Assembly: GCA_019058445.1 (NCBI GenBank)
Contig: JAHPZA010000009.1
Coordinates: 96,001 to 160,000 of the forward strand
Length of the DNA: 64,000 nt
From: Promethearchaeota archaeon
GTDB taxonomy: Archaea; Asgardarchaeota; Lokiarchaeia; Sigyniarchaeales; SOKP01
Direction: 5' to 3'
Part shown: piece by piece, positions 23,883 through 58,746 of the stretch
Numbering within the stretch: the stretch's first letter is position 1
How the letters are laid out: each line of letters starts with the position of its first letter
Made by a program: the position numbers and the translations under genes
The notes under the pieces: generated by a model
Seen by the model: the letters and a program-made list of their open reading frames with translations, nothing else
Database searches by the model: none
What the model was told of the DNA's origin: nothing

Positions 23883-24012
23883 AGAATTGTATTAATGATT
23901 AAAAAAAGTTAAATAATCTAAGATAAAGTAATACTATCAATTATGAAAAAATTCTAATAAAAAAATAGGAAAAGTTATTCTGTTAGAATTTGAATAAAAG
24001 AAGTGACAATAA

Positions 24013-26280
24013 ATGGATAAAGAAGAACCGTTTAAGGGTTTAATCAGGCGCACCTATGATAAGTCAATCCCATGGTGGCCTGATCCAAAGTGGTCAGAAA
24101 AAGATAAGCCGAATGTAGTGATTATCCTCTTAGATGATACAGGTTTCGCTCATTTAGGTTGCTATGGTTCTAGCATCGAGACCCCAAATATTGATCGATT
24201 AGCTGAAGGAGGCTTACGTTACACAAATTTCCATACAACTGCTTTATGTTCACCGACGCGAGCGTGTTTACTAACTGGTCGTAATCACCATACCGTTGGT
24301 ATGAGAGCAATTGCTAATTTTGATTCCGGCTTTCCTCATATGAGGGGATACATTACACCTCACGCAGCTACTATTGCAGAAATTTTGAGTGAAGAAGGAT
24401 ACGCAACCTTTGCTGTGGGTAAGTGGCATCTTACTCCAATGATGGAGGCATCACCTGCCGGACCATTTGACAATTGGCCTCTTCAGCGGGGCTTCAATCG
24501 CTTCTATGGTTTTATGCAGGGTGAGACAGACCAGTTTTATCCTGAGCTGACCTGTGATAATCATCCAATCGACCCTCCCTATAGTCCCGAAGAGGGATAT
24601 CATATTAGTGAGGATCTTGTTGATCAAGCAATGGCACTCATCCGTGACCAGAAGTCAATATATCCCAATCAACCTTTTTTCCTTTATTTAGCATTCGGTG
24701 CGACTCATGCACCACACCAAGCCCCACGTAAATTTATTGAGAAGTATCGTGGTCGTTTTGATGCAGGTTGGGATGCTACTCGCGAGGAATGGTATCAAAG
24801 GCAGCTTGAGATGGGCATCATACCGTCCGGCACTAAATTAGCTCCTCGGAATAAAGGTGTTCGTGCCTGGGATAGATTGTCCGAGAACCAGAAAAAATTC
24901 GCACTATGTTTGCAGGAAGTTTTTGCTGGCTTTTTAGATCACACGGACCAACAGATTGGGAGATTAACTTCTTTTCTGGAGCAGCTAGGTGAACTTGATA
25001 ACACAATTTTAATTTTACTTTCAGATAATGGAGCTAGTCAGGAGGGAAGCTCCACTGGGGTCATGGATGAGTTTAAGTTCTTTAATGGAGTGATGGAAGA
25101 TATTAATGCCATCCAAGATCGTCTTGACGAGATTGGTGGACCGCACAGCCATTCTAATATTCCTTGGGGTTGGGCACAAGTAGGAAACACCCCGCTTAAG
25201 TGGTATAAACAAAATACTTTCGGGGGAGGAGTTCGTGATCCACTAATCATCCATTGGCCAAAACGGATACGAGATCGAGGAGGAATCCGTAACCAGTTCC
25301 ATTTTGTCTCCGACATTGTACCTACTATTCTTGAGGTTCTTGATATCGAACCTCCCTCGAATTATAAAGGGATTTATCAGATCCCCATTTCCGGTACATC
25401 AATGGTTTATACTTTTGATAGCCCAAACGTAGCCACTCAGAAAAATGTACAATATTTTGAGATGTTTGGTCATAGAGGTATTTGGATCGATGGCTGGAAA
25501 GCGGTTACTTATCATACAAAAGGAGAACCCTATAAGGATGAAGAGTGGGAACTATATCACTTGGATGAGGACTTTTCGGAATGTAATAATCTAGCATCTG
25601 AAAATCCTAAAAAATTGCGTGAGTTAATTGATTTATGGTGGATAGAAGCTGGGCGGTATGGCGTTCTTCCGCTTGATGATAGAAATATTGAGCTTTTTAG
25701 AGCTGTATTTCGACCAGGAACGCCTCATGCTACACGTAACTATACCTATCATCCCCCAATTAGCCATTTACCCGCAGAAGTTGCACCAGCACTCGGAAAT
25801 CGCACGTGGGTGATGACCACTGAGATAGAGCGCCCAAATAACAGTACTGAGGGAGTTTTAGTTGCTCAAGGCACTCAAAATGGAGGATACAGTTGGTATA
25901 TTAAGGATAATCAATTGGTATTTGATTATAATGTGTTTACAGAACATCATGTGGTACATTCCGATCAGAGTGTGCCCACTGGGAAATGTACGCTTGGAGT
26001 GAAATTTGTAAGAGAAGGGAGAACTGGCACAATTATCCTTTCAATGGATGGTAAGGAGTGTGGTTCAATCTCAGTTCCATATATTTTACGAATGATTTCG
26101 TCAACAGGATTAGATATCGGAAGAGATGGGCTCTCTCCAGTCACTAATGATTATAAAGCACCATTCAAATTTACCGGTACAATTAAAAGAGTCCATATAG
26201 AGCTGCCTCGCTACAGACCGCCTTCAGAAGAGCGTGAGGATAAGGAGGTTAGATATCGTACTGAGATGTCTAAACAATAA
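24013..26280 (+). CDS. Arylsulfatase (Cys-type, AtsA-like) with C-terminal beta-sandwich
   Basis: PNVVIILLDD, CSPTR (formylglycine motif), LLTGRNHH, GKWHL and SDNG. Confidence 0.93.
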   Translation: MDKEEPFKGLIRRTYDKSIPWWPDPKWSEKDKPNVVIILLDDTGFAHLGCYGSSIETPNIDRLAEGGLRYTNFHTTALCSPTRACLLTGRNHHTVGMRAIANFDSGFPHMRGYITPHAATIAEILSEEGYATFAVGKWHLTPMMEASPAGPFDNWPLQRGFNRFYGFMQGETDQFYPELTCDNHPIDPPYSPEEGYHISEDLVDQAMALIRDQKSIYPNQPFFLYLAFGATHAPHQAPRKFIEKYRGRFDAGWDATREEWYQRQLEMGIIPSGTKLAPRNKGVRAWDRLSENQKKFALCLQEVFAGFLDHTDQQIGRLTSFLEQLGELDNTILILLSDNGASQEGSSTGVMDEFKFFNGVMEDINAIQDRLDEIGGPHSHSNIPWGWAQVGNTPLKWYKQNTFGGGVRDPLIIHWPKRIRDRGGIRNQFHFVSDIVPTILEVLDIEPPSNYKGIYQIPISGTSMVYTFDSPNVATQKNVQYFEMFGHRGIWIDGWKAVTYHTKGEPYKDEEWELYHLDEDFSECNNLASENPKKLRELIDLWWIEAGRYGVLPLDDRNIELFRAVFRPGTPHATRNYTYHPPISHLPAEVAPALGNRTWVMTTEIERPNNSTEGVLVAQGTQNGGYSWYIKDNQLVFDYNVFTEHHVVHSDQSVPTGKCTLGVKFVREGRTGTIILSMDGKECGSISVPYILRMISSTGLDIGRDGLSPVTNDYKAPFKFTGTIKRVHIELPRYRPPSEEREDKEVRYRTEMSKQ

Positions 26281-50075: not shown

Positions 50076-51524
50076 TTAGTTAATTTTCGCCCCACAATTA
50101 GGACAGATAATTACGTTTGAAACAGTGCAGCCACATATAACACACATCTTTATAGTTGTTCTTTTTTTCGGGGGTTTTAATTCAGTTATTGATTTTTTTT
50201 CTACTGAAGTTTTAGTTTCTGAAAACTCCTTAATTTTCATTTTACTATTTTTTAGTTTCTCATCTACAATAATTTCTTGTCCAAAATATCCTCCAACTCT
50301 AACTTTTTTCATTTTTGGAGGACTTGGTGGTGGTGGCTTAGTTTTTAGTTTTGGTGGACTTGGGGGTGTAGGACTAACTTCAATTTTTTCTATTTTTTCT
50401 TCAATTTCATCCACTTGTTGATATTCTTTATTTACTTCATAATCTTGAGCAGGTTGCTCCTTGGTATATTGCTCTTCTTCGATTTCATGTACAACTTCTT
50501 CAACTCCCTGCGGTATTTGCTCAAGTTCACCAGTAAGAGTCTCAGTTTCAGGTGGCTCTCCTAACGACGCCTCTTGAATTTCTAAAATTGATACTTCCCC
50601 AAATTCTTCTTCATAGACTAAATCTACATATTCTTCATCCAACTTTAAGAGAGTTTCACATTGAGGGCATCTAAATATATGGTTATATCCAAAATTATTA
50701 GAAATTGCATATTTCGCAATTTCACATCCATGAAATTTAGCTCCACAATTATAGCATTTCTTAATTTCGTCAGAATACGCTCCGCACATCGGACATACCT
50801 CTAACGAACATATTGAGCAAATTTCCTCATCTTCAGGTGATAGACTTATTAAATCTGCTGCCAGTTTCTCGTAAAAAATCTTATCTTCCTTTAAATATTG
50901 TCTTTGTCGCGCATCTGGACGAATAATATTGAATTCTCTCTTGCTTTTAATTAAGGAACTAAGAACATCCTTAAATTGCGGTATATTATTACAAAAAAAA
51001 GTTCCACCTTGTGTTTCACTAGTAATAACTTTTATTTTAACCTCGTCAATATAATTTGTTCTCTCTCCTACCCGAATAATGTCAATTATTGTTAAAAAGT
51101 CCAAAATCTTCGATTTAACGATTAAATCATATAGAACATTATGATATTCTTCGGGTTTTACACTTGGGGTATCGGAAATAACAATCACACGATAAACTTT
51201 TTTAATTTCCCGACTTTTTCTAAATATATATGATAAAATCTCAAACAAGGCATTTTCAATATAACTACTAGTCTTTGGTCTTGTATCCCATTTATCATCA
51301 ATGATTTTTAAAAGTGAATTAGCGTCCTTCTCATCATATAACGATATCGGATTATCTTCTTCTTGAAAAATAACAACCCCAAAACTAGAATCGACTAAAT
51401 TAAGCTTTTCATCAATAAACTCTTTAATTGTACTAGTAAGTGTCTCTTTTTCAATAAATTCAGTAGTTAAATCTATAAAAAAGATTATTTCTTCTAAATT
51501 AATTAAATTTCCAATATTCGTCAT
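50076..51524 (-). CDS. vWA-like domain + CxxC/C4HC3-like finger + acidic/polyproline linker + C-terminal Zn ribbon (paralogue A)
   Basis: IFFIDLT, VIVISDTPS, IDIIRVG and ETQGG.F (vWA strands); CSIC..CPMC..CYNC..HGC..CPQC; PTPPSPP..PPPPSPP; CVIC..CPNC. Confidence 0.75.
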   Translation of the reverse strand: MTNIGNLINLEEIIFFIDLTTEFIEKETLTSTIKEFIDEKLNLVDSSFGVVIFQEEDNPISLYDEKDANSLLKIIDDKWDTRPKTSSYIENALFEILSYIFRKSREIKKVYRVIVISDTPSVKPEEYHNVLYDLIVKSKILDFLTIIDIIRVGERTNYIDEVKIKVITSETQGGTFFCNNIPQFKDVLSSLIKSKREFNIIRPDARQRQYLKEDKIFYEKLAADLISLSPEDEEICSICSLEVCPMCGAYSDEIKKCYNCGAKFHGCEIAKYAISNNFGYNHIFRCPQCETLLKLDEEYVDLVYEEEFGEVSILEIQEASLGEPPETETLTGELEQIPQGVEEVVHEIEEEQYTKEQPAQDYEVNKEYQQVDEIEEKIEKIEVSPTPPSPPKLKTKPPPPSPPKMKKVRVGGYFGQEIIVDEKLKNSKMKIKEFSETKTSVEKKSITELKPPKKRTTIKMCVICGCTVSNVIICPNCGAKIN

Positions 51525-51694
51525 TTTTTTATGATTGTTAAATTGTTTCAGTGTGCTTATCTAAAAATTATTCTAGTTTTTACATTTATAATATAAAAAG
51601 AAATCTTATTTAATATTATTTTAAAAAATTACACTAAGATTTTGTGGATAACTGAATTATTTAGAAGTAAATAAAATGAGTGATTATAAAATAA

Positions 51695-53038
51695 TTAGAA
51701 ATCATGCCCGCATTTTAGGCATTTCTTCTCATCTACATTTACTTGATTACCACAAAGGGGACAAATCTTTATTCTATACTTTTCTTTTGCTATTTGTTTT
51801 TTTGTTGGTTTCCAAAATTTAGGTTTCTCCTTCTTTTCTTCTATTTCTTCTTGCAGAGAAATCGAGGTTTTGGCAATTCTTTCGTATACTAACTTATCTC
51901 CGACTTTTTTTACAGTAAAAGTTTTCCCGAAATATCCCCCAACTCTTATATGCTTAGTTTCATTCTTAGAAAGTCCTTTTATATTTGAATCTTCAGGTCT
52001 TATCCCTTCTAATGGTTTTTTGGGCTCTTCTAAGTCGATAACTTCAACAATTTTAGGGGACATTTCTAGCTCTGAAATTTCTTCTTCAAGATATGCTTTA
52101 ACTGATGTTACTTCTGGATCCTCTATTGATACCTCAGGAGCAACCTCAAGTATCTCATCCTCATCTATTTTAAGAAGGATATCGCATTTTGGACATCTAA
52201 AAATATGCGGAATGCCTATGTGCTGAGTAGTAACATAATTGATAACACAGCAATTATGAAAAGCGGCTCCACATTCTTCACATAAATGTGGAACATCATA
52301 AACATCAGTACAGACTGGACATATTGTTTCTTCACAGAAATAACATTTTAAATCTTCCCAAGATTGTGGGGCCTTTAAAGGCTTTGCCAAGTTACTATAA
52401 AACGCATAATCATCACTACTAATTTTTAACTCGTCTGGTTTATCTGTAAACGTAGATACAAGTTGCTTGTTTTTTACTAATTTTCCAATTATATCTTGAA
52501 ATTGTTTTTTATTTTGGGTATAGAACATTCCCCCTTTCGTGTCGCTTGCTAATATATTCAATTTTACATCGTCTTTAAAAAATCTCTGTCCAGGTTCAGC
52601 AACTCGAATAATATCTATAAAAGTGGGAAATATTTTAATTTTTGAAACTAGGTCCATTAGTGCTTCTTTGTAATCTTCGGCAAGATCACTGGGAGTATCA
52701 GTTATTATAATGATTCTGTTGAATTTTGATTTTTTCCTTATGGTTTCTGCTATATAAGAACATATATAAAACAATCCCGATTCCAATAAACTCTTCTTTA
52801 AACGATTTTGCCAATTTTCTTCAATTGCTTTTAAAATTATTTCTGAATCCTTTTTATCTTTTATAAATATCGGATGTTCCTCATCTTCTTGAAATATTAG
52901 AATACCATAATGTCCCTTAATATTAATTTTATTTTTCTCTTGAATATATTGTTTCAAAAATTTGATAATATCTTTTTTTTTAAGCAAATCTTTTGTCAGA
53001 TCTAAATAAAAAAACACATCCTCGTAAATAGTTCCCAT
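51695..53038 (-). CDS. vWA-like domain + CxxC/C4HC3 finger + C-terminal Zn ribbon (paralogue B)
   Basis: FFYLDLT, IIITDTPS and DTKGGMF; CYFC-x4-CPVC-x9-CEEC-x4-HNCC-x17-CPKC; RVGGYFG shared with paralogue A; CPLC..CLKC. Confidence 0.75.
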   Translation of the reverse strand: MGTIYEDVFFYLDLTKDLLKKKDIIKFLKQYIQEKNKINIKGHYGILIFQEDEEHPIFIKDKKDSEIILKAIEENWQNRLKKSLLESGLFYICSYIAETIRKKSKFNRIIIITDTPSDLAEDYKEALMDLVSKIKIFPTFIDIIRVAEPGQRFFKDDVKLNILASDTKGGMFYTQNKKQFQDIIGKLVKNKQLVSTFTDKPDELKISSDDYAFYSNLAKPLKAPQSWEDLKCYFCEETICPVCTDVYDVPHLCEECGAAFHNCCVINYVTTQHIGIPHIFRCPKCDILLKIDEDEILEVAPEVSIEDPEVTSVKAYLEEEISELEMSPKIVEVIDLEEPKKPLEGIRPEDSNIKGLSKNETKHIRVGGYFGKTFTVKKVGDKLVYERIAKTSISLQEEIEEKKEKPKFWKPTKKQIAKEKYRIKICPLCGNQVNVDEKKCLKCGHDF

Positions 53039-53162
53039 ATAATAGATACCTCGGTATGTTTTTTTTATTCTACAAAAATTAAAAAAATAATTAATATATA
53101 TAAGAATAATAAATAAAAAGAACTTATAGTATTCTTGAAGAAATCAAATAAAGTGAAATTAA

Positions 53163-55145
53163 ATGGATGAATTTTTAAAACAATTGCAACTAAGCGAAGA
53201 TGCAATCAAAGTTTATAAAGAAAGTTTAGGAAGACCTCCTTTAACTTACTATGAATTATATTCGAGTTTCGTACCTAATGTATCAACAGAGGATTTTGCA
53301 AGTATTATAAACGAATTAACTGAAATAGACTTGTTAATCCAAATCGTTCCCCAAAAACCGGAAGTTCTTTTACATTATATTGCAATTCCACCCTTTACTC
53401 CAATTTTAAACTATTATAAAAATATTCATACGAATTTAGTTAACATACAAGATGCGGTTACAGGACTATTATCGAATTCTTTAAGTCAAATTTTTCATGA
53501 AAAGGAAAATATCGAATTAGAAGCACTGTTCAATAATTTTAGTGATATTAAGAAAGATGTTATGGAAGATTCTCTACTTCAAAAGCAAGATGCCAAAGAC
53601 ATTTTTGAAGATTTTGAAGATATCAAATCCAATCTAAAAAAATCTTTATCTAATTTTAGACTAACGAAGTCTAAACTCCAAGAAAAAATTACAGATCATA
53701 CTCAAACACAATTTTCAGAGTTGATACATAATTTAACTAGGATAAAGTCTGTCTTAATTACTAATATAAAATCATTAGAACTTAAGAAAAAAGAAGAAGG
53801 AGTATTAGAGGTTATTGAAAATGTGTTTAAAGATGAAATTCAGAGATTTTTAAAGGAATTTATCTCAACAACTGATAAATTAATTAAAAAAGAATTTCAA
53901 GATTTTGAAGAATCAATAAATAATAAGGTAACTGAACCCATTACTAATTTACTAGAAAGTGCTATTCAATCTGGAAATGACCTAAATTTGCTATTCTTAA
54001 CTGCTCTTAGCAACATTGAAAAATCTATGAACCAAATTCAAAAAATTATAAAAGAAGATCAAGAAAATCTCTCAAGGGATTTAAAAAAGCTTGAAAATTC
54101 AATCCTAGAAAATACGAATGAGATTGTAAAAGATTCAATGAATCAAGTTTCAGGATTAAGTGCGCCTATAGAAAATATCATGAGACTATTTCTTGAAAAA
54201 AACCTTCTCTCATATAAGAGAGGAATAGATAATGTATGGTTAATTAATACCCATGTAAAAATCAATGAAGAAATTGTTAACTTACTTTCTAATTCTAAAG
54301 AAAATCTCATAATTATTGTTCCTAAGATTGAAAATTATCTAAATTTAGACCAACTTCAAAATATCCCTAAAGACTTGAAAGTAAAGATTGTGTCCTCTGA
54401 TCCCCATACGAACAGTGTTGTGAAGAGTTTCAAGACAATGAGTAATTTAGAATATAGGACTCTGAAAAATGAGAATATTGTTGCATTAAGTGGAGATGAC
54501 AATCATATTAATATTAGTGTGCTTAATACAGAGTCGAAAGATGTTTTAAATAATATTGTAGGTATTGGAAGTAATTATAAACCGTTAATTAGTGTATTAT
54601 CCAGAATAATTAATGCAATTTGGATTGCTGCTGAACCTGACTATAGCCGACCTATTAAAGAGGTAAAGCCAATTCCTAGTCCAGTAAAAAAACAATTGCC
54701 CCCCGAGACGATTCCCTCCTCAACACCAGTGAAAGAACAAATAAAAACAGAAATTCAACAAGTGACAGCAATTAAAGAACCGCATATGAGTGTAACAGAA
54801 AATAGAACCGTTAGCCAGGAAAAAGTTGAACCTGCTATCCAACCTCAGACAAGTAGTGATTTTACATCAAAAATTAACCCTAATGCAGGCGATCAAGCAG
54901 GAATGATAATAAATACAGCATTTAATATGCTAATTTCAAAATTAAATGTAATAACGGGTGAAGCATTTAGTAACGAGTTACAAGATATCTCAGATATAAT
55001 CTTAGAACGAAAGGGATTCTCAGTAACCCTCCACAGCGTAAGAAGTATGATTAATAAATATAAAGAACTCGAAACTCTGTTAAATGAAAAAGAAAAAATG
55101 GAAATTTTCGAAGCAATTGAGGATTGGAAACAGAGATTATTTTAA
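53163..55145 (+). CDS. TrmB-like protein: N-terminal winged helix, long coiled coil, PLD-fold-like effector domain, Pro-rich linker, C-terminal helical domain
   Basis: L.LSEDAIKVY...L..I.LL...Y.AIPP TrmB-HTH pattern; ~270-aa heptad region; VWLI...LIIIVP...W TrmB-type domain. Confidence 0.6.
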   Translation: MDEFLKQLQLSEDAIKVYKESLGRPPLTYYELYSSFVPNVSTEDFASIINELTEIDLLIQIVPQKPEVLLHYIAIPPFTPILNYYKNIHTNLVNIQDAVTGLLSNSLSQIFHEKENIELEALFNNFSDIKKDVMEDSLLQKQDAKDIFEDFEDIKSNLKKSLSNFRLTKSKLQEKITDHTQTQFSELIHNLTRIKSVLITNIKSLELKKKEEGVLEVIENVFKDEIQRFLKEFISTTDKLIKKEFQDFEESINNKVTEPITNLLESAIQSGNDLNLLFLTALSNIEKSMNQIQKIIKEDQENLSRDLKKLENSILENTNEIVKDSMNQVSGLSAPIENIMRLFLEKNLLSYKRGIDNVWLINTHVKINEEIVNLLSNSKENLIIIVPKIENYLNLDQLQNIPKDLKVKIVSSDPHTNSVVKSFKTMSNLEYRTLKNENIVALSGDDNHINISVLNTESKDVLNNIVGIGSNYKPLISVLSRIINAIWIAAEPDYSRPIKEVKPIPSPVKKQLPPETIPSSTPVKEQIKTEIQQVTAIKEPHMSVTENRTVSQEKVEPAIQPQTSSDFTSKINPNAGDQAGMIINTAFNMLISKLNVITGEAFSNELQDISDIILERKGFSVTLHSVRSMINKYKELETLLNEKEKMEIFEAIEDWKQRLF

Positions 55146-55210
55146 GGAAAAAAAGAATAAATTTAGTGTTATAAATTTAATTTACCACTTTTCTTAACAA
55201 ATTTTTAAGA

Positions 55211-55975
55211 TTATTCTTTAATTTTTTCAGATTTATGAAAAAATCCAGATATTATAAAGATCAGCAATAATAAGAAACCACCAAAGAATATTAAACTAAT
55301 AATTATTGAAACTGTAAAATCGGGATTCATTGCTCCAATTATGGCAAAAATAGGGCCAAGAGGAGCAATTATAAGCACGATAATATACACTTTTTTGTCC
55401 TTTTCGCCGAAACTAATATGGGTTGTAATGTTAAACCATCCTATTAAGATCATTAGAAAAGGAACAATATAAAGAGATACTTCGGGAAATGGATGTTCTA
55501 TCCCGCCTAAAGCGAAAGCATAAAAATAGTTGGCGCAATAGAAGCTTATTAATAATAAAGCAGAAAGTGGAGTTGGAACCCCTACATACCCGGGTGTCTC
55601 TTCAGTTGTTATATTAAATCTCGCTAATCTAAGCATTGCGCCTAAAGCAAAACAAATACATCCAATAATGAGAATAATATCATAAAATCCCCCTGTTTTA
55701 AAAGCTTGAAATGCTAAAACCGAAGGGGCAATCCCAAAGGTTAATGAATCGCTTAGAGAATCCATTTCTATCCCAAATTTGTTGACAGTACCCGTTTTAC
55801 GAGCAACATACCCATCCAGTAAATCAGTACCGAGTGAAATTGCTACAAAAAAAAATCCTAAAGATAGAAAGTAGCGTGTACCAATTACAGCACAAATTAG
55901 CGCGAGTATTCCCATGGTCGTTCCAGAAAGTGTAATATAATCTTTTAATTTTAAAAGTTTTGGTATGCTTGTCAT
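55211..55975 (-). CDS. pssA: CDP-alcohol phosphatidyltransferase, archaetidylserine/phosphatidylserine-synthase-like
   Basis: DLLDGYVAR...FG.EMDSLSD..TFG.AP motif, RLARFN and GVPTP. Confidence 0.82.
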   Translation of the reverse strand: MTSIPKLLKLKDYITLSGTTMGILALICAVIGTRYFLSLGFFFVAISLGTDLLDGYVARKTGTVNKFGIEMDSLSDSLTFGIAPSVLAFQAFKTGGFYDIILIIGCICFALGAMLRLARFNITTEETPGYVGVPTPLSALLLISFYCANYFYAFALGGIEHPFPEVSLYIVPFLMILIGWFNITTHISFGEKDKKVYIIVLIIAPLGPIFAIIGAMNPDFTVSIIISLIFFGGFLLLLIFIISGFFHKSEKIKE

Positions 55976-56120
55976 TTTAAAGTCGATATTTTAGATTTTA
56001 TGTATTTATAAAAATAAGCATTTTTCGTATTATAACTTTTTTCGTATTCCTCAAAATTTAAAATCTAATAATATTATCATAAGATTAAAAAAATACTAAA
56101 AAATAATTCATTACAAAAAA

Positions 56121-56825
56121 GTGATATTGTTGAAATATTGTCCAAGTTGTGGAGTCGAATTAGAGGATAAAGAACAAAATTTTTGCGAGAAATGTGGTGC
56201 TAATTTAGACGATTATAAAAAGGAAGGTAAGACAGAATCTCAGGTGGTTTCACAATCTTCAAAAATCACTCAAGTATCAAGTAAATTATTTGATCTCAAT
56301 CGTAATTACTATATTTTGAAGGAAAAGTATTGGGATTGGGGTTCAGGAGAAATCCTTGATAATCAAGGCCAAGTCATTGGAAAAATGCATAGAAAAATAT
56401 TAAGTATTAGGAAAAAAGTTGAGCTTATGGAGTTAGATGGTACTGTTTCAGCTAGCATAAATGCAAAGTTAATATCTGCACGAGCTGCGCAAGATTTAAA
56501 AGATGCGCAGGGGAACTTGATTGCTAGGATAAAAAAAAAGATAATGACATTATTAAAACCAAAATTCTTTTTGGAGGATCCAGAAGGTACACGATTATAT
56601 GAGGCACAGGGTAATTTTATGGGTTTTTCTTTTAAAGTCAAAGATTTAACTTCAAATAAGATTATTGCGGAAATCGAGAAAGCACAAAAATGGCGTGATG
56701 TTTTTCTAGGTGGAGTATTTGATTTTAAAGACACTTATGCTTTAAAAATTCTTGATAATAAAACAGATAGAAGGATTCTTTTAGGGTTCGTGCTAAGTAT
56801 CGATAATGTCCTCCATGATCAATAA
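56121..56825 (+). CDS. Zn-ribbon + LURP-one-related / scramblase (Tubby-C) fold protein
   Basis: CPSC...FCEKCG, then the LOR pattern (ILKEK, ARIKKKI...PKF, AQGNFMGFSF, DTYAL.I, LGFVLSID). Confidence 0.78.
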   Translation: MILLKYCPSCGVELEDKEQNFCEKCGANLDDYKKEGKTESQVVSQSSKITQVSSKLFDLNRNYYILKEKYWDWGSGEILDNQGQVIGKMHRKILSIRKKVELMELDGTVSASINAKLISARAAQDLKDAQGNLIARIKKKIMTLLKPKFFLEDPEGTRLYEAQGNFMGFSFKVKDLTSNKIIAEIEKAQKWRDVFLGGVFDFKDTYALKILDNKTDRRILLGFVLSIDNVLHDQ

Positions 56826-56976
56826 TCTTGAGGATAGCTTGTGATATATTTTTTTTTATTTTAAAAATTTTTCTCTTAAAATCATTCACATTTATCGAAG
56901 AATAAAAGTTTTTAAATAAAATGTGTTTTAATTATTACAAAATTGTATCTTTTATAATCAATCATTTGTAATTTTT

Positions 56977-58167
56977 ATGACTGAAGCTTACGATTATTTC
57001 ATGATTTATGAGTTGGATGATTCCGGCGAGAGAATTCGAATCCCTGCTACTGAAGAAGAATTTAAAGCCAATAATGGTTTGAATTTCTTAAATCCTGACC
57101 AAGTTTTAGTAATTGTTAAGGAATCTATAAGAAGGATATACATTTGGAAAGGGGCTAAATCGCATGTGAGAAAGCGGTTTATAAGCTCGAGAATTGCAGG
57201 GGCACTTCAAGAGGAATTAGTTAAAAATGCTGCGTTCCATAGATGTAAAATCGTGTCTGTTGATCAAGGAGACGAGGTTATAGAGTTTTTAAATGCCTTT
57301 AGATTTGAATCCATGCCTGTAGAGGAAAAACTGGCAGATATGCATTATGTACGAAATATTGATAGAGATAAAATGTATGATCGTGGGGAAATACCCGATA
57401 CAGGCCCTCAGTATGTAAAGATTGAACCAAAATCAGAGCCACATGTCTCACCAGCAATAGAGGAACTTGAAAAAGAAAAACTAGTACCATTACCTAAGGG
57501 TAGTAAAGAAAAAGCTAGAAAGATAGCACCAGTTCCTAAACAACCTATTCAAACTGCACCCGCAAGAACTTCAACGTCCACTCGACCTTCACATACGCGA
57601 GCATCTTCAGCAAACCGACCTTCATCAGGAATATCAGAAGATCAGAAAAATAAAATCATGGACAAAATTATTAAGACTGAAGTTCCAGAGGGTTATAAAA
57701 GGCAAAATCTAATTTTAGGCCATATGCTCTATGGTACTGTTTTAAAAAAAGTGAACGTTTTAGGAAAAACTATTGAAGAAACTGAATGGGAACAAGTAAA
57801 AACCTTACCAAAAGAAACAATTGAACTAGAGGATCGCATTTTAAGAGTTTATTTTGATGCTAAAGGGGAAATAGTGGAAGCCTTAGAGGTATTAGAAAAA
57901 ACTGATGGAAGTATTAAGGTATCTAAGAAATCAAAATCGGATGAAAAAAAATCTACTACTGAGGAGAAACTTGAGAAAGTGGATGCCCCAGAAGAAGATA
58001 TTGATTCGATGACTGTGAAAGAACTTAAAACTTATGCTGATGAGCATAATATAGAATTAGCTTCAGGCGCTCGAAAAGCAGACATTATTAAAACTATAAA
58101 GGATTCATTAAATAACGGAGCTGGAACTTCAAAAAGAAGAAAACTACCTGAAATTCCCAAAGCTTAA
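56977..58167 (+). CDS. Asgard gelsolin-domain protein: gelsolin domain, linker, unknown beta-rich domain, Rho-N/HeH (LEM/SAP-like) domain
   Basis: LNPDQVLVIV...IYIWKGAKS.VRKRF...VDQGDE..EFL is a gelsolin repeat pattern. DSMTVKELKTYADEHNIEL...ARKADII is an HeH/Rho_N pattern. Confidence 0.8.
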   Translation: MTEAYDYFMIYELDDSGERIRIPATEEEFKANNGLNFLNPDQVLVIVKESIRRIYIWKGAKSHVRKRFISSRIAGALQEELVKNAAFHRCKIVSVDQGDEVIEFLNAFRFESMPVEEKLADMHYVRNIDRDKMYDRGEIPDTGPQYVKIEPKSEPHVSPAIEELEKEKLVPLPKGSKEKARKIAPVPKQPIQTAPARTSTSTRPSHTRASSANRPSSGISEDQKNKIMDKIIKTEVPEGYKRQNLILGHMLYGTVLKKVNVLGKTIEETEWEQVKTLPKETIELEDRILRVYFDAKGEIVEALEVLEKTDGSIKVSKKSKSDEKKSTTEEKLEKVDAPEEDIDSMTVKELKTYADEHNIELASGARKADIIKTIKDSLNNGAGTSKRRKLPEIPKA

Positions 58168-58257
58168 TGTATCACTAGTACTTTTTGTTTTCAAATTCGA
58201 ACTTTTATTTTTTGTAATAAAAAGAGAAAAGTGAAAAATAAATAGATTTATTTTTAT

Positions 58258-58746
58258 TTAAAAGCCCTCTTCTTGAGAATCATCTTCAATGCCTCTTTCT
58301 TCAGGCTTACCTTTTTTTTGTTCTTTTTCTTTGGTATGTTCTTTGATTTTTTTCAATCCTTCGATCGCTTCCTTTCTAACTTCGGGATCCTTATCTTGTA
58401 ATGCCTTAGCAAGAGCTTCAAGAGAGTATGAGTGATGAAGATCACCCAGCTCGTCTGCTGCTTCTTTCCGGCAACGAGGATCTGGATCATTAAAGAGAAC
58501 ATAAGTTAATAATCCTAAAGCTTTCTTATCCTTGAAACCGCCAATCGTATCAAGAGCTTCTTTCCTTACATCCGCATCAGTATCACTTACTGCAGTCATC
58601 GCTAATGGTCTTAAGATACTATCGTTTCCAATAGGCTTGATATCCGAAAGATCTACTCCACAGTACTTGCAAAAATTATGGTCAATTTTGATGGTTTTTC
58701 CACATGCTGGACAAACTCTCTGTGTATTAAAATCAATAAATCCCAT
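58258..58746 (-). CDS. Zn-ribbon + HEAT (PBS-lyase-like) repeat protein
   Basis: CPAC..FCKYCG, then three D.D..VR.EA...LG repeats. Confidence 0.82.
   Translation of the reverse strand: MGFIDFNTQRVCPACGKTIKIDHNFCKYCGVDLSDIKPIGNDSILRPLAMTAVSDTDADVRKEALDTIGGFKDKKALGLLTYVLFNDPDPRCRKEAADELGDLHHSYSLEALAKALQDKDPEVRKEAIEGLKKIKEHTKEKEQKKGKPEERGIEDDSQEEGF

Follow-up and report, generated by a model that had tools for sequence, protein, structure and literature searches.

A gene in the window (the 64,000-nucleotide stretch of DNA that was analysed, on whose forward strand all positions are given) encodes a 396-residue protein, denoted here as GelX-HeH, which is made of five parts: a gelsolin-homology (Gel) domain, a linker, a beta-rich domain, an HeH motif and a tail with the sequence R-x-L-P-x-I-P. 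The assignment of these parts is far above chance, and the protein very probably belongs to the GelX (1DGelX) class of Asgard gelsolins. While the combination of gelsolin and domain X was already known (Akil 2020, PMC7444086; 10.1101/2025.11.30.690169), literature searches returned no paper describing HeH on GelX. The explanation that best integrates the observations, to which we assign as a whole a probability of roughly 45%, is that GelX-HeH would be a GelX-class regulator of Lokiactin, paired through domain X and addressed to DNA by its HeH motif. In this model, the N-terminal Gel domain and the conserved segment behind it would bind actin, and domain X would pair two chains, leading to a working molecule with two actin-binding heads. 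The C-terminus would serve as an exchangeable address, consisting in this clade of the HeH/SAP-type motif plus the basic R-x-L-P-x-I-P peptide. The HeH would bring the dimer to the DNA or nucleoid, or else DNA to the filaments, so that actin would be severed or nucleated beside the chromosome.

The gene spans positions 56977..58167 (+), including the stop codon, and starts with an ATG, exactly matching the open reading frame reported in the initial annotation; the N-terminus of its product is collinear with that of its homologues in the alignment. A sequence search recovered 530 homologues at E ≤ 1e-3, with all of the best 120 below 1e-90. A TATA-like element, TTTTATAA (56950..56957, +), can be read directly from the sequence, some 20–27 nt before the ATG; the stop codon of the preceding gene is followed by T-runs, and GelX itself is flanked by such runs. 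The element and the upstream T-runs suggest that GelX-HeH probably has its own promoter. No RNA dataset was listed as carrying the locus, and its DNA occurs in sediment metagenome runs, probably including the run from which the sequence originates.

The Gel domain (residues 1–110; 56977..57306, +) presents the signatures W57-x-G59 and D96-x-G98-x-E100...F104. Compared with Pfam Gelsolin, the single GelX-HeH sequence scored 15.9 bits, below the cut-off of 21. A profile of 29 family members, searched against solved structures, matched villin (5.8e-13), the Loki 2DGel 7whg (1.1e-11), Thor 2DGel3 (7e-11) and ProGel 7c2f (~1e-9), as well as many gelsolin chains. The AF2 model of the domain (pLDDT 85–91) found its best PDB match by Foldseek in the Thor ProGel/actin structure (7c2f_B; E 2.5e-6, TM by target 0.78), and 42 PDB matches were obtained at E ≤ 1e-3, those listed in the top 50 being gelsolin-family chains. 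Both the profile match and the gelsolin fold (a central sheet with one long and one short helix) thus place the domain in the gelsolin/cofilin superfamily, as anticipated when a gelsolin repeat was first proposed at the N-terminus. Thor ProGel and the Asgard 2DGel proteins (7c2f, 7c2g, 7c2h, 7whf, 7whg) share this gelsolin-homology fold, ProGel being the best structural match. However, ProGel is a bare domain and 2DGel consists of two Ca-regulated gelsolin domains, and neither carries X, HeH or the tail.

The closest known relatives are the Asgard 1DGelX/GelX proteins, in which a single gelsolin-homology domain is likewise connected through long disordered linkers to a domain X at the C-terminus. 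The L. ossiferum protein UYP44381.1 shares 35% identity with GelX-HeH (E 5e-48) and is collinear with it from Gel through the post-gelsolin segment and the SP motif to X; it is also matched by the X profile and likewise ends in R-x-L-x-x-I-P. GelX-HeH differs from published GelX in having an HeH/SAP motif between X and the tail, and in an X that is well folded and beta-rich. It has been reported that L. ossiferum B35_GelX clusters with Thor_GelX (10.1101/2025.11.30.690169), and the putative kinship to the X of Thor 1DGelX (SMTZ1-83) rests on this preprint clustering and on weak X matches in other Asgard classes. Thor 1DGelX binds actin with a Kd of 7.7 µM and displays Ca-independent severing and nucleation (PMC7444086, Akil 2020), and five gelsolin homologues are reported to co-precipitate with Lokiactin (PMC13716822). 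From its relationship to Thor 1DGelX and ProGel, GelX-HeH would be expected to bind actin and, like the former, to sever and nucleate it independently of Ca. At least two Lokiactin-grade actins, at 441 and 424 bits, are encoded in the same genome.

Behind the Gel domain lies a segment (residues 111–135; 57307..57381, +) in which M113, V115, D121, Y124, R126 and N127 are invariant. Its family consensus reads ...LADMRYIRN, and it is conserved also in the paralogue L002 and in L. ossiferum UYP44381.1; it is a candidate for an additional actin contact. It is followed by a disordered linker (residues 136–215; 57382..57621, +) with a pLDDT below 50 except for a helix at residues 159–166, its Pro/Ser/Thr/basic composition being that described from the start. 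This helix corresponds to the motif S-P-A-[IL]-x-E-L (residues 158–165; 57448–57471, +), in which S158 and P159 each show a conservation of 90% or more. A second disordered spacer, rich in Lys, Ser and Glu (residues 313–340; 57913..57996, +; pLDDT below 50), is variable in the alignment and separates domain X from the HeH motif.

Domain X (residues 216–312; 57622..57912, +) is composed of one helix and five long antiparallel strands, is predicted to homodimerise and, when folded alone, reached a pLDDT of 90.9. This is the beta-rich domain of about 90 residues that the initial annotation had detected but left without a name. The fold is a confident one, with no relative in Pfam or the PDB, but a name does exist, that of the domain X of published 1DGelX/GelX. 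No Pfam family was found for it at E ≤ 10 with the GelX-HeH sequence, and 52 family members gave only scattered, chance-level Pfam matches; the PDB yielded nothing better than E 0.25 by sequence, and a best E of 0.14 (TM 0.2) by Foldseek. A wide VIA-align comparison gave a best Z of 4.0 (a sensor domain; rmsd 3.6 Å over 75 residues), with PAS/Cache/GAF and roadblock-like chains at Z ~3, within background. The failure of these searches to name the domain does not prove that its fold is novel. The possibility of a cryptic second gelsolin domain was considered and rejected, hhalign giving a probability of 0.2 for Gel versus X. When the ESM Atlas was queried with X, both by shape and by features, solely Asgard GelX clusters were returned. 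Among 1.84 billion sequences, the X profile matched 115 representatives, nearly all of the full-length ones also containing Gel, and X is present in 279 of 400 Asgard genomes; the domain is Asgard-specific and is found almost only behind gelsolin domains. Matches in other Asgard classes are weak (E 1e-8 to 1e-11) and every strong one falls in the window's own family, so no inter-class distribution is claimed for the HeH form; the Hermod-, Hod-, Thor- and Odinarchaeota labels on some orthologue records are given as deposited. The beta-rich fold corrects published accounts, in which the X of Thor 1DGelX was described as a "predicted coiled coil" (PMC7444086) and that of L. ossiferum GelX as "disordered" (10.1101/2025.11.30.690169). 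The mismatch with the Thor description nevertheless counts against our preferred explanation.

The prediction that X pairs with X was derived from complex modelling, which gave an ipSAE of 0.58 (0.56, 0.58 and 0.60 in individual runs) compared with 0.00 for the best of three controls, with at least 96% of the contacts in agreement between runs and a partner pLDDT of at least 86. Among proteins of solved structure, 20 of 30 homo-pairs and one of 23 single chains attained the ipSAE mark, counts that calibrate it only roughly because our own alignment was used. As a matter of model confidence, the homodimer is thus supported, and a clade with tandem X–X exists among the relatives of GelX-HeH. If the dimer is functional, it would offer a simple explanation of the nucleating, severing and bundling activities that have been published for Thor 1DGelX, a one-domain gelsolin, since the pairing of X would provide two heads.

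The HeH/Rho_N/SAP-type motif (residues 341–380; 57997..58116, +) was assigned on the basis of profile matches, the model and conservation, and we are highly confident that it is a genuine HeH. Its initial placement at 57997–58107, equivalent to residues 341–377, proved correct. Pfam Rho_N scored 28.1 bits over residues 344–378 of the whole protein and 32.6 with the isolated segment, above the cut-off of 24.9, while HeH (26.0 versus 28.9) and SAP (19.1 versus 23.9) fell below theirs with the GelX-HeH sequence; among 39 orthologue segments, 36 matched HeH, 34 Rho_N and 27 SAP at E < 0.01. The model contains helices at residues 347–356 and 367–379 joined by an extended loop (pLDDT 83–86), and its fold matches, although weak, were to phage Rho_N, HeH and LEM-like models. 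T346, V347, K348 and I359 are found in at least 90% of the sequences, L350 and K367 are invariant, and K351 and R366 reach the 90% level only when counted as K/R. The motif thus corresponds to the two-helix module of about 35 residues (T-V-K-x-L-K ... A-R-K-x-x-I-I) of the HeH, SAP and Rho_N families (PF12949, PF02037, PF07498) and of LEM, as represented by FluMu gp35 (2out), the Tho1 SAP (1h1j) and the Rho N-terminus. Unlike these modules elsewhere, that of GelX-HeH is attached to an actin regulator. Full-text searches found no paper on HeH in Asgard gelsolins, and a term search of PMC9433394 did not return "HeH". These searches agree with the earlier remark that no described Asgard gelsolin with HeH was known, as far as the motif is concerned, but the combination of gelsolin and beta-rich domain is that of published 1DGelX/GelX.

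Key information on the possible target of the motif came from its other carriers in the same genome. The HeH of GelX shares 56% identity with the one at the N-terminus of RadA, and the same type is present on topoisomerase VI-B and on an ScpA-like kleisin located next to SMC, a 312-residue protein being the fifth carrier. Because the motif sits on RadA, topoisomerase VI-B and the kleisin, its address, if it is one, is most likely the DNA or nucleoid, and this sequence context supports the prediction. Even so, that the HeH targets nucleic acid or chromatin is held tentatively, at slightly less than even odds, and the full proposal of a dimeric adaptor coupling Lokiactin filaments to the chromosome, with a role in nucleoid positioning, is regarded as unlikely on present evidence. 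If true, GelX-HeH would represent actin-based DNA handling independent of ParM-type plasmid segregation, and a coupling that predates the eukaryotic nucleus and its nucleoskeleton. Asgard cells are reported to keep DNA and ribosomes apart (PMC8776820).

The same profile matches raise the question of RNA. A function as transcription termination factor Rho was rejected, since Pfam detects the 35-residue Rho_N motif alone, with neither the cold-shock-like RNA-binding domain nor the RecA-type ATPase; the label "Rho termination factor N-terminal domain-containing protein", given in databases, fits the motif alone. Alternatively, the HeH could bind RNA instead of DNA, tethering transcripts or ribosome-associated RNA to actin filaments. 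This would agree with the fact that only Rho_N exceeds its cut-off on the GelX-HeH sequence, and with an L20/unknown-domain fusion in NCBIfam that matches the HeH region weakly. However, what is shared with Rho_N is the short helix-extended-helix part, matches to HeH and SAP are no rarer among the orthologues than those to Rho_N, and the HeH carriers of the genome act on DNA. We consider an RNA target very unlikely.

A survey of HeH retention among orthologues, as suggested in the initial annotation, showed the motif at 48 of 80 species-level loci and its absence at 32, and L. ossiferum GelX also lacks it. At the corresponding position, relatives present two HeH (P0138; SAP 38.9 bits), a second X, a helix-hairpin-helix (P0159; HHH_5 27 bits, equal to the cut-off) or nothing, while in genomes of genus g12, where the best X matches lie in open frames of about 280–320 residues, a separate Gel-X-HeH-HeH paralogue is often found. 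The HeH is thus a clade-specific accessory: it occurs in a single family-level clade of Lokiarchaeia, where it is often lost or replaced. The best tree requires nine changes of state, two of them forced by well-supported branches. The sequences tentatively suggest that HeH was ancestral and later lost, a polarity that depends on a rooting made uncertain by the Ca. Harpocratesius outgroup row, which has a mis-cut Gel segment and a long branch.

The dispensability of the motif weighs against our preferred explanation, as does its charge: the net charge of the HeH core averages only +0.9 over 39 orthologues (from −4 to +5) and is 0 in GelX-HeH, so that the core is hardly basic, and an acidic stretch precedes it. 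In addition, proteins too can be bound by HeH, SAP and LEM folds, as in the case of LEM-type HeH with BAF, a protein not known in archaea. GelX-HeH could accordingly be an ordinary GelX actin regulator with purely cytoskeletal action, the HeH being a protein–protein or regulatory adaptor or a near-neutral add-on with no role in nucleic-acid binding, and the HeH and tail serving to dock the regulator onto protein partners. This alternative, which we judge somewhat unlikely, would account for the frequent loss or replacement of a near-neutral motif, without which L. ossiferum GelX works, and for a tail that resembles a peptide ligand and is more widely conserved than the HeH. It does not fit so well with the observation that the other nameable carriers are DNA enzymes or a kleisin, that an unrelated HhH of DNA-binding type occupies the same position in a relative, that one clade has a duplicated HeH, that a paralogue retains the motif in cases where it is missing from the main copy, and that K348, K351, R366 and K367 are kept.

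The tail itself (residues 385–396; 58129..58164, +) was singled out early as KRRKLPEIPKA, and its R-x-L-P-x-I-P motif is indeed kept, with R388, L390, P391, I393 and P394 each being either invariant or shared by at least 90% of 55 homologues. As the end of an ORF, the strict motif occurs once in the genome, in GelX, compared with 0.3 expected from shuffles. Five loose matches equalled the shuffle expectation, and the one inspected was a spurious 77-residue ORF, so the idea of a motif common to other proteins of the genome was rejected. Class I SH3 ligands conform to +xPhiPxPhiP, whereas in WH2 motifs of the LKKV type an amphipathic helix is followed by L-[KR]-[KR]-[VIT]. The tail is retained as R-x-L-x-x-I-P in L. 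ossiferum and in GelX that are more distant, the latter having K, Q or H in place of the first Pro (e.g., ...LKKIP or ...LKPIP). This variation weakens the reading as an SH3 ligand and fits an LKKV-like one, although no helix evidently precedes the tail.

Among prokaryotes, a regulated actin cytoskeleton of eukaryotic kind is known only from Asgard archaea. The family plan of GelX is modular, with a head expected to bind actin, a domain that probably pairs chains and, at the C-terminus, an address that can be exchanged. In several clades this address is of DNA-binding type (HeH, tandem HeH or HhH), which provides a concrete hypothesis of how actin and the chromosome might be linked. Eukaryotic gelsolin, villin and supervillin follow the same design, a gelsolin core with a C-terminal address module such as the villin headpiece, the added module setting the site or mode of actin action. 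GelX-HeH differs in having a single Gel domain, where those proteins have three to six, in X and HeH being unrelated to the villin headpiece, and in a multivalency that would be achieved through X pairing and not by domain duplication.

The genes around GelX-HeH include those for a CDP-alcohol phosphatidyltransferase (PssA-like) and for a Zn-ribbon protein of LOR/scramblase fold. It could be argued that GelX-HeH forms with its neighbours a module for membrane-lipid and actin remodelling, in which the basic C-terminus, including the HeH, would address anionic membrane. The block made of vWA/Zn-finger, a 660-residue protein, PssA-like, Zn-ribbon-LOR, GelX and Zn-HEAT is present in 53–67 of 80 loci, the LOR gene lies about 900 nt upstream of GelX on the same strand, distant GelX end in amphipathic plus polybasic tails, and Thor 1DGelX-GFP was concentrated at nuclear-envelope/ER-like regions in human cells (PMC7444086). 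However, the genes of the block face different ways, GelX has an apparent promoter of its own and is flanked by T-runs, and the conserved order may be mere inheritance because all strong matches belong to one taxonomic family; a membrane address is, in our opinion, highly doubtful. The conserved neighbourhood was treated as weak functional evidence, since the order differs in L. ossiferum and Ca. Harpocratesius, where the neighbours are others and a macro-domain gene is found upstream.

The gene for GelX-HeH (positions 56977-58167, + strand) encodes a 396-residue protein in which a gelsolin domain (Gel) is followed by a linker, a domain called X, a helix-extended-helix motif (HeH) and a C-terminal tail. 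A TATA-like sequence read 20-27 nt upstream of the ATG, TTTTATAA, is a candidate promoter element and, together with the T-runs behind both the upstream gene and the GelX-HeH stop codon, suggests that the gene is probably transcribed on its own. The AlphaFold2 model, built from an alignment of 55 homologues, has three confident parts, spanning residues 1-110 (pLDDT 85-91), 221-310 (83-88) and 345-380 (83-86), with disordered linkers between them; alignment and model also reveal a short, conserved linker helix, S-P-A-L-x-E-L (residues 158-165).

The initial annotation had recognized a gelsolin repeat at the N-terminus. When GelX-HeH was searched alone, Pfam Gelsolin scored 15.9 bits, below its 21-bit cut-off, and phmmer reached Thor ProGel (7c2f_B) with an E of 6.5e-4. 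The doubt over this sub-threshold call was removed by a 29-member family profile, which matches villin (5.8e-13), the Lokiarchaeota 2DGel 7whg (1.1e-11), Thor 2DGel3 (7e-11) and ProGel (1.1e-9), and thereafter adseverin, CapG and gelsolin. In the PDB, the fold of the ProGel/actin complex comes closest, with an E of 2.5e-6 and a TM by target of 0.78, and among the matches listed from the 42 counted at E<=1e-3, all are gelsolin-family chains, so that the repeat is confirmed by both profile and fold. The gelsolin signatures W57-x-G59 and D96-x-G98-x-E100, followed by F104, are invariant, and the segment behind Gel (residues 111-127, consensus ...ESM.V.EKLADMRYIRN) is as conserved as Gel itself, being kept also in the paralogue on contig C6 of the same genome and in L. 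ossiferum.

The domain of about 90 residues that the annotation had described as beta-rich and could not name is indeed beta-rich in the model, and it does have a name: it is domain X of the published Asgard class 1DGelX/GelX. An X profile (residues 216-312, 52 sequences) finds the L. ossiferum GelX UYP44381.1 (346 residues), which at 35% identity (E 5e-48) is collinear with GelX-HeH from Gel through the post-Gel segment and the SP motif to X; judged by this alignment, the base architecture is already known. The Thor 1DGelX binds rabbit actin with a Kd of 7.7 uM and shows Ca2+-free severing and nucleation (Akil et al., PMC7444086), Loki genomes carry two or three 1DGelX proteins each (PMC9433394), the name B35_GelX was given in work on L. 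ossiferum (10.1101/2025.11.30.690169), and five gelsolin homologues are reported to co-precipitate with Lokiactin (PMC13716822). Against 1.84 billion representatives, the X profile found 115 proteins only, and Gel precedes X in almost all full-length matches. X occurs in 279 of 400 Asgard genomes, including 129 of the 134 in the window's family, and is absent from some other families. No sequence relative of X is present in Pfam or the PDB, and its fold matches are unconvincing, the best reaching E 0.14 in Foldseek and Z 4.0 in VIA-align (75 residues at an rmsd of 3.6 A); in the ESM Atlas it resembles Asgard GelX clusters only. That X might be a hidden gelsolin repeat was rejected (hhalign probability 0.2). 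Folded alone, X is predicted to form one helix and five long antiparallel strands (pLDDT 90.9), a model that contradicts the published descriptions of X as a "predicted coiled coil" (PMC7444086) or as "disordered" (papers on GelX).

Modelling further suggests that X probably forms pairs. The X + X complex reached an ipSAE of 0.58 (runs 0.56, 0.58 and 0.60), and the highest-scoring of three controls gave 0.00; contact agreement between runs was at least 96% and partner pLDDT at least 86. Of proteins solved as homo-pairs, 20 of 30 attain the same ipSAE mark, as does 1 of 23 solved as single chains, a rough gauge, since our own alignment was used. The modelled interface is symmetric and comprises residues 246-251, 276-285 and 287-305. 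Such pairing would fit the presence of tandem X-X in one clade, as well as the report that Thor 1DGelX nucleates and bundles with a single actin-binding domain (PMC7444086).

The HeH motif, whose clan also holds SAP, LEM and Rho_N, was likewise called correctly from the outset: Rho_N scores 28.1 bits (curated cut-off 24.9) over residues 344-378, HeH and SAP fall slightly under their cut-offs, and the profiles of HeH, Rho_N and SAP recognize 36, 34 and 27, respectively, of 39 orthologue segments. Among solved structures the HeH of FluMu gp35 is closest, with Tho1 SAP and Rho weakly behind, and the weak fold matches include models of phage Rho_N, HeH and LEM-like type. Two positions, L350 and K367, show no variation; T346, V347, K348 and I359 are conserved in at least 90%, and K351 and R366 are K/R only. 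The identification of the protein as a Rho factor was rejected because only the 35-residue motif is present. Our literature search found no paper describing an Asgard gelsolin that carries HeH, SAP or Rho_N; the annotation, likewise, knew of no described architecture of this kind with HeH. The tail shows little or no variation at R388, L390, P391, I393 and P394; the strict motif was found at one ORF end in the genome, that of GelX-HeH (0.3 expected). In the window's clade the tail fits what we take to be the class I SH3-ligand pattern. L. ossiferum and more distant GelX have another residue in place of the first Pro (...LKAIP, ...LKKIP, ...LKPIP), and these tails look more like what is presumably an LKKV-type actin motif.

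How often orthologues keep the HeH, a survey proposed in the initial annotation, was tallied over 80 species-level loci. The motif is kept in the forms Gel-X-HeH-tail (42 loci, one with a split Gel match), Gel-X-HeH-HeH (4) and Gel-X-HeH (2), and is missing from Gel-X-tail (19), Gel-X-X-tail (8) and Gel-X (5). In a tree from the Gel and X columns, weakly rooted on the family holding L. ossiferum, the architectures are strongly clustered, X-X and HeH-HeH each forming one clade with 99% support; the best tree has 9 changes of HeH state, only 2 of them forced by well-supported branches. Since HeH-bearing forms branch first under this weak root, the tree suggests an early gain of HeH followed by losses. 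In a genus coded g12, the best X matches lie mostly within open frames of ~280-320 residues, and 13 genomes have a separate frame, mostly of 370-400 residues, matching both HeH of P0138, a relative with two such motifs; the four sampled Gel-X-HeH-HeH loci equal these separate frames in size. HeH may therefore be retained at the genome level in this genus. Behind X, the relative P0159 has a helix-hairpin-helix (HhH; HHH_5, 27 bits, equal to the cut-off), L. ossiferum and Ca. Harpocratesius have a bare R-x-L-x-x-I-P tail, and other distant GelX have amphipathic and polybasic endings. Because different modules or tails occupy this position, the C-terminus of GelX is, on comparative grounds, an exchangeable address. 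Many distant Gel-X proteins of other Asgard lineages (P0190-P0229) end in L-[ST]-[DE]-L-[VI]-x-F-F-K or A-F-G-F-[RK], then polybasic runs; such endings may direct these proteins elsewhere, to membrane or actin.

What the HeH addresses is best approached through four other proteins of the window's genome (G000) that carry the same type of motif, three of which work on DNA. A 442-residue RadA/Rad51 (L091:337-1665, contig C10 ~96.9-98.2 kb, - strand) has an N-terminal HeH, 56% identical to that of GelX, then an acidic linker and HhH + ATPase. An unusually long topoisomerase VI subunit B (1148 residues; L098:1925-5371, -), followed by subunit A (L098:723-1940, -) with an overlap of a few bases (both genes at C6 ~1.179-1.184 Mb), bears HeH and further basic and helical sequence in a C-terminal extension. 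A ScpA-like kleisin adjoining an SMC gene (frame of ~334 residues; L100:1081-2085, C6 ~1.208-1.209 Mb, -) has an N-terminal HeH that the first ATG/GTG/TTG would exclude, so that translation may begin at an unusual codon or the start may have been miscalled; HeH-bearing ScpA-like frames of equal length recur across the window's family. The fourth, of 312 residues (L099:2157-3095, C6 ~242.2-243.1 kb, +), combines an N-terminal Rho_N/HeH (29 bits) with a SWIM-like CxC...CxH and no further Pfam family. The DNA-acting carriers, the replacement by HhH and the tandem HeH form the best available argument that the motif addresses nucleic acid, DNA or chromatin, a reading to which we give slightly less than an even chance (about 0.45). 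HeH-class folds can also bind proteins, and this, the frequent dispensability of the motif and its near-neutral core (mean charge +0.9 in orthologues, 0 in GelX-HeH, with an acidic stretch in front) count against a DNA address. With a nucleic-acid address, GelX-HeH would be a testable candidate link between actin and DNA.

A six-gene block recurs in 53-67 of the 80 loci, its window copy spanning 50076-58746: vWA/Zn-finger (two paralogues in the window), a 660-residue protein that no Pfam family matches at E<=0.01, CDP-alcohol phosphatidyltransferase, Zn-ribbon LOR/scramblase-fold, GelX and Zn-ribbon HEAT. We treat it as probable inherited gene order, because strong X matches all fall within one family, the genes are not all in one orientation, and the GelX neighbours differ in L. 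ossiferum, where the block is absent, and in Ca. Harpocratesius. An ORF that looks macro-like by eye (ADP-ribose-binding type) lies directly upstream of GelX on the same strand in L. ossiferum (L101:142-756, +) and Ca. Harpocratesius repetitus (L103:2537-3109, -).

G000, a sediment-metagenome assembly of 4.6 Mb (92.6% complete), holds at least two actins of Lokiactin grade and eight gelsolin-domain regions. Among these are a 286-residue Gel-X (G000:C9:580325-581089, +) and a tandem pair of a 121-residue ProGel-like protein and a 243-residue Gel-X (G000:C9:410582-411786, +), both Gel-X being paralogues shorter than GelX-HeH. A 315-residue gelsolin-domain protein (G000:C6:314216-314584, -) is 45% identical to GelX-HeH over Gel and the post-Gel segment and has a different, unnamed C-terminal domain. 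Two further actin-family matches, at G000:C10:653495-654577 (-; 321 bits) and G000:C9:593898-595019 (+; 175 bits), contain in-frame TAA stops; each may be a pseudogene, a split gene or an artefact of assembly. Finally, G+C rises to 0.43 at window positions 24001-26000, compared with ~0.30 in the rest of the window, as is typical of an rRNA/tRNA gene or a foreign insert.
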